A stretch of 64,000 nucleotides of DNA from assembly GCA_050575255.1 (NCBI GenBank), contig JBNZDD010013602.1, positions 96,333-160,332 on the forward strand, written 5' to 3'. This document shows, one piece after another, positions 1 to 21,884 of this stretch (position 1 is its first letter; each line of letters begins with the position of its first letter). Origin of the DNA: Harriotta raleighana (lineage: Eukaryota). Under the pieces are notes generated by a model that worked only from the letters and a program-made list of their open reading frames with translations, had not been told where the DNA came from and made no database searches. The position numbers were made by a program, and so were the translations under genes.

Positions 1-760
1 CAGTGGCTGCCCTGTGGTACCCATGTTATCAGTGGAACCCACGCTTGCCCCACGGTTGGCTCGTGGCAGGTGGACGGTTGGAGCACGTGGTGCGCGCGAG
101 CCCAGGTGCTTTGGACCGTTAAAGCCACGTGACCGATTTGAATCTGGTTCCCCTCCCCCCGCCCCCCCCCCCACCCCTCCCCACTCCGCTCCTTCCCAAG
201 CGCGCGCTCTCGGCTCGGGGTCCGGGGAGAGACACATCCCAAGAGAGTGAACAAAACAGGGGCGGCGGCGGCGGCGGGGGGGTGTGTGTGTGTGTGTGGG
301 GGGGGGGGATGTTCGTTGGTGGGTGGGGAGAGAAGTAAAATAGCTCGTTTAGACTCGCAGAAATGGCCGAGGAAGAGACCTTCGACTTAAATGTGCTGCG
401 CGTCGACGGGAGGCAATTCCGTGTGGGGGTGAAGCCGGGGGACACCATGGAGGACGTGAAAATAAAACTTTCGACGTTGCTCGGCGAGGAGGACTCGGGT
501 GACCCCGAGCCCGTCAGGCCCGAGAGGCTCAGGCTCCTGTCAGCCCAGCAACCGCTGGAGGATGACCTGACAGTCGCCGAATGTGGTCTTGCGTCGGAAT
601 CCATCGTGACCTACCAAGAGAGGAGTATGTGGCAGGGTCGTTTGATCCTTTTCATCCCCTCCATCATCCCCATCCCTTTCCTCCCCTCCTCTCTCTCTCT
701 CCCCTCCCCACCCCCCCTCCCCCCCCCACACACACACACACACACACCTACCTATCATTA
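1..760. promoter_or_regulatory. GC/CpG-rich promoter and first-exon region of gene A
   Basis: High GC and many CpGs compared with the AT-rich downstream DNA; contains the ATG at 363 and a gtatgt donor at 625. Confidence 0.6.
363..624 (+). other. Ubiquitin-like (beta-grasp) domain exon of gene A
   Basis: Ubiquitin-type pattern (VxPxDTxxDVKxKL; RLRLL; LEDDLTVAECGL, cf. LEDGRTLSDYNI); no C-terminal GG; phase-1 donor. Confidence 0.75.
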
Positions 761-3700
761 ATACTAATTACTAATACTACCTAATACCATTCACATTCAT
801 CTATTATTCACACCCATTCACTATCCCTGTATCGATTCATTCTCCGGCCCACGACTGTACGTACGGTCACTTCGCTTCACGGTTCCGTTCACTGGCCGAA
901 GCGTTTTGAGGCGTCTGGAAGACGAAGTGAAAGGCGCCATATCAAATAGTAATTAGGAATGATTGGAACGCTAATCCTTGCGTTTGACATAAAGCGCTCT
1001 ACACGTCAATCCGGACGCCTCGTAAAGCGCCTCGTGGAATATGCCGGAAGGTGAATTGGCTGCGTATCGGCGGGGCGAAACGCGGCAGCCATTCGCATAC
1101 AAACACCGAACAAAAAAAGCGAGGATGATTATTATTATTATTAGACTATTACCGATCAAAATGTTGTTTAAGAAAAACATTCTGTTTTTTTGGCAGGTGC
1201 AGATGGATCTGGAGTCATTGACTACACCAGTAATTTGCCTTTAATGTTTTACTTTAACAATTAGTTAGACATTACAATCGCATGAAGTAACATTAGATAC
1301 TCGGGTAAATTTTAAAATAATACAGATTCAGTGTTTATTAGATGTATCTACATCAGCCTTTTTATTCTGAGGTCGTGATATGGTTGTGTGGGAAAGTGAA
1401 TCACCTCAATCATTTGATTTTCCAAGTGTGAGGTTTACAGTTTACAAACAATTTTGTGTTTCTTCATTAATATAAATAGAACTGGTGTAAGTTAGCAAAC
1501 AGCTACAATTGCCATAGTTGAGAAGCAATTGAAGATGTTGAGTGGACTCAATGGTCTTAAGCTAAAATCACAGGTGTTTTTATTACGTCAAAATTTCAAA
1601 TATTTGTGTATGTTAGTACAGTGCTAGTTAATGGTGAACAGATTTTCACGATTTTTTTTGTTTCAGTTTCGGGTGAATTCCCCAAAGGTACATCAGCAGG
1701 TAACATTATATTTGTAGTATGTGAAACATTATAGTTTCATGGTAGAACTTGTGGGCACAATTGAGATAAATTTCCCACAGTTAAATTTCTTGGATGACAC
1801 TCACAATTATAGATAGTATTTTTATATATATTGTAGACAGATACACTGAGCATAACATTTATTGCAGTCAACACTGTATCTGACTGCAGTAAATGGTGGG
1901 TATTGTATTTTTATTATGCAATTACAGTACTTGAATTTAGATAGAGTAAGCACATTTAGGAGTAAATTTGTGTATTACATTTAACCTAAAAGGAAAGATG
2001 ATACTTTTTTATTGCTGTTTTCTGATATTTAACGAATAATATTAAAATATATCTTTTCCAATATATTTTAGATTGGAAGCCGCTTGCTAAATTTCAACAT
2101 GTAACTCCAGATACAACCAAGAGGCAAAGAAGTATGTTGCTTCCATTCAGTGTATTAAATAGCTAATGGCACTTTTAAAAATATATATTATAAATTAGAA
2201 ATAACTAATTTTCTCAAGTTTATGTGTTTTTAAAAAAAAAATCTGTTTCTTTAAACAATTACTATTGATAATTTATCTAGGAAACTGCTTCAGAAGGAGT
2301 TTTCCCATGTAAGGTAATTAGAAAAACACAGTCAATTCAATTTACAGTATGAAGCACTTTGTGACGTCTTGAAGACATGAGAAAGCACTTTGTAAATACG
2401 AGGGTTATTATAGTTGAAAGTAAAGTAAAGTGCAGAAAGAAGAACCTTATATAATTTCACTCAAAGTTTCTCAAAGCAACTACATCTTTTCCTTTGTAGC
2501 CAGATCAGCTATTTCTAAATGTCTACACATTTTGTAAATACACAATGAATGAATTATAGGATTTTGAATAGATATTCTGAAATTACAGCACGCGTGACTT
2601 CATCTGGTTTACGTGGACAAATGGATGTATGTCATCATGTTTCTAAACAAACTTACATCTTTGTTAATTACCCCACTTGGATTACTAAATCTGTCATTCT
2701 AATATTTAGTAGGAATACCCTTGTAGCATTACACTACTTGGAGTATATTAGATTGTGTATTGTGTCATTTAATCCAATTTACGCTGTTAATGTAACAATA
2801 GTGCACCTACTGAAGTACTTACCGTTGTATTCTATTCTAATGAGTCTTGGTGAATCCAAATACGCTAGCTGCAACATTCTATAAAATGTAATTAATAATT
2901 CTTGTGAGAAAGTAGAGAGAAAAAATAAACTGTTCCTATTTAACTTTTCACACAGGAATGATGAGGATACTTTGTGAGTTTAGTCACCAAAAGATGACTA
3001 GTTCTAACATGTGTGAGATTGAAGAGGTAACAGTTTTGATTTAAATATAATTGGCTAGACATTAATTTCATGTAGGAAAAATAGGATAATAAGGAACAAC
3101 CTGATTTACTCCAAAATCTGATTTATTCCCTTTCTTTGATTCTCTGAAGGAAAAAACAAACTGGAAAGTGATAGAGCCTGATGTCTCTGATCAGGAGTTA
3201 TTTTTTAGGTAAGGTCTGATAGAAACCCAATGTTTTTAATGACTTTTAATTCTATATTACATTCTCATACTCACATTTCTGTGCAGGATTTCTCTCCCAG
3301 ATGAAGGCAATTATGAATGTGCTGTAACTGGACTAAGATGGGAAATCACAAAATCAACAACCATTGATTACAGATATTGCTCGTGGCATGAATATGCTCC
3401 TATTATTGTGATAAAGAAAGCAGAATTTTCAGGTCCTTTGTTTAATATTGTGGCAGAAGACAGTGTTATTACAGCTATTCATCTTCCTCATTTTATTTGC
3501 TTAAAAGGTATCTTCCAATATTTTCTTTATTTTAGAAATTTTCAAGGTTCTCTACTATGCCGTGCTTTTTTCATAGAAAACTATAATTATGCATAAACAT
3601 GTTTTTTCTTTCCTACTGCAGGCAAAGATAGAATAATAGATTATACCTTTGCAATTTTCCATGTTAAAGAAAGCTCCTATAGCGTACGGAAGCCATCAGA

Positions 3701-21700: not shown

Positions 21701-21884
21701 GAACTTGGAAGTTAACTACTCACAGAAATTATGTAATAACTGTATAAGACAATTTGGTTTAACAACAATACAGCCAGGATGCTTCTCTACCACACGGAGA
21801 CCTGAAGGAATGTGGTTTCTTCATGTGGTTTGTATAATTTTTGGTATAATTTCAGGTTTTTTAATTGGCTACAGATTTTCTTAA
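363..21884 (+). CDS. Gene A: multi-exon UBL-FIIND-linker-FIIND-CARD-TM protein (CARD8/NLRP1-like, roughly 1300-1400 aa)
   Basis: UBL exon 363-624 (TFDLNVLRVDGRQFRVGVKPGDTMEDVKIKL...LRLLSAQQPLEDDLTVAECGL). Micro-exons 1197-1229, 1667-1699, 2072-2131, 2956-3026. FIIND1 exons 3150-3208, 3287-3507 (GNYECAVTGLRW...GPLFNI...AIHLPHFICL), 3622-3875 (HVELQMPTF/SLMGV...LHVYIIPND), 3969-4088, 4569-4710. About 23 phase-1 linker exons at 4975-17284. FIIND2 exons 17896-17975, 18274-18335, 18566-18786, 19671-19927, 20482-20607, 20935-21076. CARD+TM exon 21439-21884. Phases join in frame; a single transcript is inferred. Confidence 0.75.
3150..4710 (+). other. FIIND domain 1 (ZU5+UPA) of gene A
   Basis: Five exons with FIIND hallmark motifs; His 27 residues before TF/S (Ser codon 3741-3743), the same spacing as NLRP1 H1186/S1213 and CARD8 H270/S297. 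Confidence 0.9.
7100..7700 (-). mobile_element. CR1-type LINE ORF2 fragment (degenerate)
   Basis: Broken ORFs with ALNKFFDSVFTKEE, KSQRPDKLHLRILKDL and DSQCGFIK...AVDVCLDFSK, typical of CR1 reverse transcriptase. Confidence 0.8.
18274..21076 (+). other. FIIND domain 2 of gene A (catalytically degenerate)
   Basis: GHYECAETGLRW, GGPLFNI, AAVHLPHFIC and LHVYVLPND are retained; the cleavage site reads QPL/TLMGV and the catalytic His position is Cys. Confidence 0.85.
21439..21884 (+). other. Terminal exon of gene A: CARD plus C-terminal hydrophobic tail
   Basis: VEFVQRHKKEII...LLQLVMNKG...LYKALL (CARD of the ASC/NLRP1 type), followed by MWFLHVVCIIFGIISGFLIGYRFS*. Confidence 0.85.

Follow-up and report, generated by a model that had tools for sequence, protein, structure and literature searches.

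CARD8 and NLRP1 signal once the proteasome strips off their N-terminal piece and frees UPA-CARD (PMC7794386, PMC10249858). Oligomerisation of UPA lowers the threshold for CARD filaments (PMC7794386). The FIIND of these proteins consists of a ZU5 and a UPA half and cuts itself at a Phe-Ser site. Cleavage in rat NLRP1 and CARD8 needs a His located 27 residues ahead of this site, and loss of the His abolishes it (PMC8081665, PMC3210808). Proteins similar to CARD8 and NLRP1 were reported in all clades surveyed except tunicate and lamprey, with architectures not given (PMC11258412). Here we describe gene A of the chimaera Harriotta raleighana, which lies in a 64,000-nucleotide stretch of contig JBNZDD010013602.1 (the window) and combines two FIINDs, an N-terminal ubiquitin-like domain (UBL), a CARD and a hydrophobic C-terminal helix.

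Gene A comprises 41 exons at 363–21884 of the + strand. They encode a frame of 1383 residues with a single terminal stop, and all junctions are GT-AG. The order of the domains is UBL, FIIND1, acidic linker, FIIND2, CARD and C-terminal hydrophobic helix. The first model, obtained by reading the sequence and testing junctions, had 40 exons and 1372 residues; orthologues exposed the additional 33-nt exon at 1197–1229. The features are listed below by position in the window.

1–1500, no strand assigned: CpG island, likely promoter and first exon; CpG observed/expected 0.84–1.18 in the first three 500-nt bins.
363–624, + strand: exon 1 with the ATG and the UBL (aa 5–87; Pfam ubiquitin, E 4.8e-9).
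1197–1229 and 1667–1699, + strand: two 33-nt exons encoding the post-UBL motif (aa 88–111, 24 residues), present in 6 orthologue models.
2072–3026, + strand: spacer exons 2072–2131 and 2956–3026 (phase 1-0), placed by junction tests and orthologues.
3150–4710, + strand: FIIND1 (ZU5-1 and UPA-1, aa 154–418; Pfam), five exons; H260 at 3660–3662, F286/S287 at 3738–3743.
4975–17284, + strand: acidic linker, 24 symmetric phase-1 exons of 21–93 nt in the junction model, several internally duplicated.
13534–13855, + strand: two exons each with an LC8-type GTQTE; TQT at 13581–13589 and 13816–13824.
14686–14753, + strand: decayed copy of exon 14940–15008, with the same acceptor, an in-frame stop and no GT donor.
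16715–16801, + strand: exon with a third LC8-type motif, D-x-x-VQTE (16762–16770), kept in the elephant-shark model.
17896–17975, + strand: phase 1-0 exon before FIIND2 with a conserved C-P-C; matches the Narcine, stingray, catshark and elephant-shark models.
18274–21076, + strand: FIIND2 (ZU5-2 and UPA-2, aa 967–1235; Pfam), five exons; C1075 at 19712–19714, L1101/T1102 at 19790–19795.
21439–21884, + strand: last exon with the CARD (21459–21710; Pfam, E 5.4e-9), a conserved K-L-C-x-N-C helix, a hydrophobic helix (21810–21866, by hydropathy), a 5-residue tail and the stop.
21885–22316, + strand: 3' untranslated region, AATAAA at 21948 and 22311.

Two complete five-exon FIIND blocks had been proposed in a preliminary description of this DNA. 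Both are confirmed by their identical exon phases (0-2, 2-1, 1-0, 0-0, 0-1) and by Pfam. The Pfam scan took in 10 exons of gene A and left out the first FIIND exons (59–62 nt) of both blocks. It found ubiquitin in exon 1, CARD in the last exon and, in each of the 8 FIIND exons covered, FIIND or UPA-FIIND; PF13553 and PF23679 are each matched twice, both in the Harriotta exons and in the model from the ray Narcine bancroftii. AlphaFold models of two catshark orthologues match the rat NLRP1 FIIND (7crw_A) with target template-modelling scores of 0.82 for FIIND1 and 0.83 for FIIND2, and the CARD of the catshark model matches the CARD8 filament CARD.

Major differences from the described systems can be observed. 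Gene A resembles CARD8 in having a FIIND followed by a CARD with a disordered region ahead (fold matches 7jn7_B and the CARD8 filament). The His-Ser spacing of FIIND1 is 27 residues, as for H270/S297 of CARD8, and the predicted new N-terminus is SLMG in both. In contrast to CARD8, gene A has the N-terminal UBL, a second FIIND, LC8-type motifs and the hydrophobic C-terminal helix. The N-terminus of CARD8 is disordered and has no folded domain, while gene A has both the UBL and a complete FIIND1 there. The CARD is the last domain of CARD8, whereas in gene A the hydrophobic helix comes after it. Moreover, the FIIND beside the CARD is degenerate in gene A (C1075, L1101, T1102), which would preclude the release of a soluble UPA-CARD. 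NLRP1 (human, rat) provides the best structural match of both FIINDs (7crw_A) and an aligned catalytic His position, but PYD, NACHT and LRR domains were absent from the full-length Narcine orthologue in Pfam, as were NACHT and LRR from the 10 Harriotta exons scanned; in other respects NLRP1 differs from gene A in the ways given for CARD8. In UNC5b and ankyrin, ZU5-UPA is likewise followed by a death-fold domain at the membrane (fold matches 3g5b and 4d8o), but identity is 10–13% and the predicted anchor of gene A is C-terminal. UNC5b is a type I receptor with its membrane span N-terminal to ZU5, and we know of no self-cleavage in the ZU5-UPA modules of UNC5b or ankyrin. MAVS holds a CARD on an organelle membrane by a tail helix and, unlike gene A, lacks FIIND and UBL. 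CARD19 reportedly also places its CARD on an organelle membrane in this way (PMC8997538), without a FIIND or UBL. PIDD1 contains two ZU5 domains with separate autocleavage sites before a death-fold domain (PMC3210808). It is a soluble LRR-ZU5-ZU5-UPA-DD protein with HF/S sites (DD, death domain), while gene A has a CARD and two entire ZU5-UPA units separated by about 550 residues.

The main question is whether 363–21884 constitutes one gene or two. It had been claimed that an unbroken chain of in-frame phase-1 exons joins the two FIIND blocks. The region between them contains 24 symmetric phase-1 exons, all open, and one phase 1-0 exon, so that the claim holds in essence. The chain is open only when the exon-like pieces 2281–2313 and 14686–14753 are skipped, and exon 1197–1229 had been missed. 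The piece at 2281–2313 was left out because it has a stop in phase 1 and is superfluous for matching the orthologue spacing. As a strand control, exon candidates in the linker were scored with home-made splice scores; the linker exons of the model itself were picked by eye. The + strand yielded 19 phase-1 symmetric candidates vs 4 on the - strand, and candidates open in phase 1 only numbered 9 vs 1.

Orthologue models, two of them from rays, provide a link across the linker. A profile search of longer proteins gave 5 matches. The best is the independent NCBI model of Narcine, with 1596 residues, which repeats the domain order of gene A: Pfam detects two FIIND and two UPA domains, a CARD and, weakly, ubiquitin (E 7e-4). 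It is collinear with gene A over aa 1–1383 at 42% identity, three linker exons included. Identity is 56–68% in the four FIIND halves, 54% in the CARD and tail and 21–31% in the linker, which shows both FIINDs to be under constraint. The stingray model XP_072923050 runs from the UBL via ZU5-1 and the linker into ZU5-2, and the remaining FIIND2-CARD-TM part (TM, transmembrane helix) is XP_072923080. Linker exons 6884, 13088 and 13534 match ray models, and exons 15191–17284 match an elephant-shark model with 87% identity over aa 829–1188. Overall, proteins of the window are 83–89% identical to elephant shark and 50–57% to sharks and rays.

A number of observations weigh against a single gene. The first 216 residues of the Narcine model, an automatic prediction, are integrase-like and probably spurious, and the stingray model, also automatic, skips the last three FIIND1 exons. 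In four of the six named orthologue species, the annotation divides the gene into separate models. The pieces number two in the small-spotted catshark and three in the cloudy catshark, the bamboo shark has two partial 5' models and the elephant shark two partial 3' ones, and three isoform models of the skate contain UBL-FIIND1 with short tails that end soon past FIIND1. Linker exons 8188–12420 have no detectable match in the elasmobranch models, and the exact exon set there is provisional. Finally, no RNA contig bridging FIIND1 to FIIND2 was seen among the pieces listed, which is no evidence either way. Among the 7 runs listed for the last exon of gene A (share 0.04–0.19), none counted as RNA that contains it. 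Four of these runs were compared with 1620–21619 at 80% likeness, and short interspersed nuclear element (SINE) matches dominate the resulting tables. In run X5, from a related organism, one contig is spliced across three FIIND2 exons; in run X6 one contig covers part of a FIIND1 exon. Run X7 resembles DNA from a close relative, with the listed pieces in collinear order.

These points could also mean that the region holds two neighbouring genes: a UBL-FIIND1 gene that lacks a death-fold domain and ends in the linker, and a linker-FIIND2-CARD-TM gene that starts there, with the long models being pipeline fusions. Mid-linker exons without an elasmobranch match would then be expected, as would the divided gene models of the bamboo shark, the elephant shark, the skate and both catsharks. 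The break points, however, differ among species, and in the stingray the break falls inside FIIND2. The fragments share no N- or C-terminus; at five of their ends, spread over four models, the reading continues into an intron at a gene A exon junction. Two ray models bridge the linker, and the longest intron between linker exons is 1130 nt. The fragment pattern fits a poorly expressed micro-exon gene that was broken up by annotation pipelines.

A two-gene arrangement would also be in line with the stop-containing piece at 14686–14753, and a transcript ending there had been named as an observation that would separate the genes. This end is disfavoured. The piece duplicates exon 14940–15008 (78% identical at the DNA level) but lacks a donor, and none of 11 poly(A) hexamers occurs between it and the next exon. 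Judging from these features, it is probably skipped, or possibly serves as a minor last exon. The absence of a new promoter before FIIND2, claimed previously, is in agreement with CpG observed/expected values of at most 0.62 in every later 500-nt bin up to 23 kb, so that the linker contains no CpG island. This is weak evidence because the first exons of the paralogues described below also lack one; the same fact can be held in favour of two genes, and CpG islands were dropped as an uninformative promoter test. In trees, FIIND1 falls with paralogues B–D and apart from FIIND2 (support 87), as expected of two genes that have long been neighbours. A shared origin of the two FIINDs nevertheless withstands the approximately unbiased test (p 0.18). 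Taken together, we regard two genes as quite improbable. We estimate the probability of a single-gene UBL-FIIND-linker-FIIND-CARD-TM architecture, as predicted from the sequence and the models, at roughly 85%, and that of one full-length transcript across the linker at the same value. The architecture first proposed is supported by the full-length Narcine and the bridging stingray models; a single transcript across the linker is predicted.

The two FIINDs differ in their cleavage residues. His, Phe and Ser are kept in 127 of 173 FIIND domains of the comparison set. FIIND1 of Harriotta contains all three, as at least one FIIND of a sensor should, and via the catshark orthologue its His position aligns to H1186 of human NLRP1. 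The Phe-Ser of FIIND1 is kept in 6/6 species. The His is present in two of them, Harriotta and the bamboo shark, and is replaced by Tyr in both catsharks, the skate and Narcine. In FIIND2, Cys replaces His and Leu replaces Phe in 5/5 species, and the nucleophile position is occupied by Thr, Thr, Ser, Ser and Ala, with Ala in Narcine. FIIND2, which adjoins the CARD, is thus very likely uncleavable, as predicted from these residues. Two observations speak against this: a Ser or Thr nucleophile survives in 4/5 species, and one of two elephant-shark models (P0003, from UniProt) has a His in FIIND2, in a segment that conflicts with the RefSeq model. From its residues, FIIND1 is probably cleavable in Harriotta and perhaps not in most elasmobranchs. 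Cleavage at FIIND1 leaving UPA-linker-FIIND2-CARD-TM, as put forward in the preliminary description, hence appears plausible in Harriotta (H260, F286, S287, next to an uncleavable-looking FIIND2), while the Tyr in four of six species implies that it may not be a conserved mechanism.

The loss of catalytic residues raises the possibility that gene A is a cleavage-independent membrane scaffold similar to UNC5 and ankyrins. The FIINDs would act as binding modules, LC8 would dimerise the chain and the CARD would signal to apoptosis, NF-kB or interferon partners. The FIIND1 His lost in 4/6 species, the degenerate FIIND2, the presence of UNC5b and ankyrin-B ZU5-UPA structures among the fold matches, and the stingray model without the FIIND1 exon that bears the cleavage site are all compatible with such a role. 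The Phe-Ser of FIIND1 is nevertheless invariant, and lineages as far apart as a chimaera and a carpet shark have the His. Among the fold matches, NLRP1 and CARD8 rank first, with the CARD of the CARD8 filament among them. A scaffold of this type is distinctly unlikely.

The N-terminal UBL is 43% identical to that of Narcine and has no C-terminal di-Gly in its sequence. A role as a cleavable bait of the ubiquitin/ISG15 type was ruled out, as no di-Gly follows the domain. When aligned to ubiquitin, it has Leu at Ile44 and Val at Leu8, and Gln at Val70 if the alignment is extended. The post-UBL motif is the best-conserved block of the protein, with 75% identity to Narcine. It was assigned to no family, and its structure prediction has a pLDDT (predicted local distance difference test) below 50, based on an alignment with few UBL rows. 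The spacer exon 2956–3026 ahead of FIIND1 contains a CxxC in the orthologues and in paralogues B–D, of which one Cys is retained in Harriotta raleighana. Further conserved Cys motifs are the C-P-C before FIIND2 (17896–17975) and a C-x-N-C between the CARD and the tail helix (about 21729–21743). It is possible that the conserved Cys motifs are zinc or lipidation sites.

At the other end of the protein, the CARD is 40–45% identical to the CARDs of the adjacent FIIND paralogues and therefore derives from the FIIND paralogue family. A C-terminus with a hydrophobic helix after the CARD is common to 4 elasmobranch models, and the catshark AlphaFold model has a helix at 397–425. The C-terminal 19-mer has a mean hydropathy of 2.4 in gene A and 1.77 in Narcine. 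Only 3 of 160 FIIND proteins have a C-terminal hydrophobic stretch above the cut-off: gene A, Narcine and one low-complexity repeat. With a single C-terminal hydrophobic helix and a short tail, the gene A protein has the form of a tail-anchored protein.

The linker has a net charge of -56 and is probably disordered, as judged from its composition. It contains two exact TQT where 0.08 are expected; both exons look like duplicates. The first TQT site is conserved in two rays (Narcine and stingray) and has Asp at -4 and Glu at +2. LC8 favours these two residues, and the phage-display optimum contains GTQTE (PMC6607443). The wider pattern [STVIL]QT occurs three times in the 3' linker of Harriotta (0.54 expected from shuffles, p 0.014), eight times in Narcine (1.17), six times in the stingray (0.66) and four times in the small-spotted catshark (0.43). 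Three models restricted to the 5' linker show no excess, and neither does a short elephant-shark piece (1 vs 0.35). The region thus combines a conserved TQT-type anchor, favourable flanks and disorder by composition, the sequence marks of an LC8 client. Multivalent LC8 clients such as ASCIZ and 53BP1 likewise have several TQT-type anchors in a disordered region (PMC6607443); among the literature matches listed, no FIIND/CARD protein appeared as an LC8 client.

The genome contains two-exon LC8 genes. An intronless LC8 identical at 86/89 residues (97%) was used as a stand-in for modelling. The peptide of exon 13536–13625 modelled in the LC8 groove reaches a score of 0.76 vs 0.08 for the best control; runs agree in at least 89% of contacts, with a partner pLDDT of at least 53. 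The score mark is reached by 51/78 solved and 2/108 mismatched pairs, peptides being outside the calibration of the tool. AlphaFold was reported to separate LC8 binders from non-binders (PMC12057147), a program other than the one used here. Several points count against LC8 binding. Many TQT peptides fail to bind LC8 (PMC6607443). The model was made with a 97%-identical stand-in, and its score may stem from solved look-alike complexes, so that it indicates likeness only.

Based on these features, we tentatively propose, with somewhat less than even confidence in the mechanism as a whole, that the gene A protein is a tail-anchored FIIND-CARD platform whose CARD would be switched by membrane clustering instead of release. 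We observe how the domains are ordered, that this order is conserved and that FIIND2 has lost catalytic residues; we infer all of the functional steps. The C-terminal helix would anchor the protein in an organelle membrane with all else in the cytosol. As FIIND2 would remain uncut, ZU5-2 would keep UPA-2 covered and no soluble UPA-CARD would form. Where H260 is kept, FIIND1 would cleave its own chain at F286/S287, which would yield a UBL-ZU5 piece of 286 residues and leave 1097 residues anchored. The proteasome would remove the UBL-ZU5 piece, the UBL being a degron or a pathogen bait, and leave UPA-1 free to oligomerise. LC8 dimers on the TQT motifs might zip neighbouring linkers and so pass the clustering on to FIIND2-CARD, which could then nucleate caspase-1 or ASC.

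The proposed platform faces several difficulties. UPA-1 lies about 830 residues from the CARD, compared to 17–25 in CARD8 and NLRP1. The Ile44 patch of the UBL is only partly kept. The catshark tails score below 1.6 in hydropathy, under the cut-off of the screen. With Tyr in place of the FIIND1 His in both catsharks, the skate and Narcine, the self-cleavage step may fail in most elasmobranchs.

The main rival to the platform is a negative regulator encoded by the same single gene. The uncleavable FIIND2 would replace full-length NLRP1 or CARD8 in the DPP8/9 complex and capture UPA-CARD fragments freed from the paralogues, or the CARD would sequester caspase-1 or ASC at the membrane; in a cis version, FIIND2 would hold its own UPA-1. 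In rat NLRP1, a FIIND that cannot be cleaved occupies the first site of DPP9 and admits a cleaved partner to the second (PMC8081665), and C-terminal fragments are inhibited by full-length proteins (PMC11760013). FIIND2 is degenerate in 5/5 species yet conserved, and the adjacent paralogues B–D have a terminal CARD along with intact His and Phe-Ser. Negative regulation alone leaves the conserved UBL, the invariant Phe-Ser of FIIND1 and the LC8 motifs unexplained, and we consider it rather unlikely. A fuller version of the platform is also unlikely. In this proposal, one chain with a cleavable and an uncleavable FIIND would hard-wire the cleaved-plus-intact pair that DPP9 builds from two NLRP1 molecules. 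The UBL would feed the N-terminal piece to the proteasome or bait ubiquitin-handling enzymes of pathogens, and the multivalent LC8 zipper would convert the release of UPA into a clustering of CARDs at the membrane of an organelle, with LC8 availability as a second input. Gene A would then be the specialised member of a broader family of vertebrate UBL-FIIND-CARD proteins that is apparently undescribed.

The origin of the double FIIND was examined with trees of 163 domains (isoform duplicates and domains below 170 residues dropped) and of a 44-domain subset. No named CARD8 is included and deep branches are weak. The orthologues of FIIND1 make up one clade and those of FIIND2 another, both with support 100 and both with the chimaeras set apart from the elasmobranchs. 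The pair therefore predates that split, about 420 million years ago, and by this evidence gene A is older than the divergence of chimaeras from sharks and rays; it was seen only in cartilaginous fishes. The grouping of FIIND1 with paralogues B–D is weak, and internal duplication and the fusion of two paralogues are both compatible with the trees.

Gene A had been contrasted with NLRP1 and CARD8, which have one FIIND. The architecture does differ, but two near-complete FIINDs occur in 9/164 FIIND proteins, 7 of which (5 genes) are unrelated to gene A, and a unique double FIIND was rejected. The protein set is no census, being mostly the best 150 of 678 matches to one query. The other double-FIIND models are Astyanax XP_049321714, Boreogadus CAL8333230, P0012, P0014 and P0045. 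They share two near-complete FIINDs with gene A, and the first FIIND of Astyanax is also degenerate. They differ in lying outside the gene A clades and in having neither a UBL in Pfam nor a C-terminal hydrophobic helix; two are recent duplicates (distance 0.05 and 0.11 vs 1.6 in gene A). P0045 (1185 aa) combines its two FIINDs with a caspase domain and a CARD in a single chain and may be a gene-model fusion.

UBLs were found in 13/160 FIIND proteins of the comparison set. UBL-FIIND models also occur in lungfish and in further database proteins, two of them with a CARD, and constitute a wider family. Genes C and D of the window, P0029, P0059 and the lungfish XP_043928969 (without a CARD) resemble gene A in having one or more N-terminal UBLs before the FIIND. 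They differ in having one FIIND and no membrane helix; C and D have an intact cleavage site and end in a CARD. No description of a UBL-FIIND-CARD family was found in the literature searched, and no paper on a tandem or double FIIND architecture in the full texts covered, with subscription journals and supplements outside this scope. The species table of PMC11258412 could list gene A accessions. In their accessible parts, a review of fish NLRs does not mention sharks (PMC12436146), and PMC7555848 and bioRxiv 10.64898/2026.10.24.761588 have no bearing on the architecture.

Three FIIND paralogues are located downstream of gene A. Paralogue B (about 29270–22999, - strand) has a short N-terminus, a FIIND with His and Phe-Ser, and a CARD. 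It is orthologous to P0016 (74% in the FIIND) and lies tail to tail with gene A, with about 1.1 kb between the stops. Paralogues C (33363–42136, +) and D (45822–56320, +) are UBL-FIIND-CARD genes with His and Phe-Ser intact, whose UBL-to-FIIND exon joins are provisional. C has two UBL exons, at about 33363–33650 and 34576–34740. D has a tandem di-UBL in one exon (45822–46310) that matches linear di-ubiquitin and ISG15 and lacks a di-Gly. The segment 57115–61074 is a 98.8% copy of 53132–57110, the 3' part of gene D; it lies beside a single N at 57111, lacks the first FIIND exons and is either a recent partial duplication or an allelic misassembly. The segments 43640–44517 and 44809–45686 are identical, with an N gap between them.

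An intronless acylphosphatase domain is found at about 62700–62971 (+) in a CpG-rich stretch (Pfam, E 3e-24). Introns of gene A contain short, high-copy SINE-like repeats (4777–4892, 8001–8186, 10679–10760, 15576–15957, 18006–18192). Directly ahead of the window is a run of 1631 N. Further upstream are an Mpv17/PMP22-family gene (L007 3836–5587, +), named PXMP2, and the DNA polymerase epsilon gene POLE (L008, L009, -); POLE and PXMP2 are paired in human as well. One other FIIND locus, a lower bound, was found in the genome (L013 291–7178, +, G000:C13729, about 12.21 Mb). Its FIIND has His and Leu-Ser, is followed by what resembles a death domain by eye and is closest to P0117, P0076 and P0150. 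No NACHT-type match was found in the 40 kb around it.

Gene A has a real, conserved and apparently undescribed architecture built from the known FIIND-CARD module, and by its defining features it is not CARD8, NLRP1 or PIDD1. Its function is predicted only, and duplicated FIINDs in themselves are found repeatedly among fish models. Most of the shark and ray gene sets examined divide the gene into pieces, an annotation that can now be corrected. As gene A would not free a soluble UPA-CARD as NLRP1 and CARD8 do, it may provide a natural test of membrane-based FIIND signalling and of the role of an uncleavable FIIND, and it provides a model in which one chain contains both the intact and the cleaved FIIND of the pair. 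LC8 and CARDs of the inflammasome type may be connected through it. Judging from the UBL-FIIND-CARD genes nearby, a ubiquitin-like head may be an old, natural way to trigger functional degradation.

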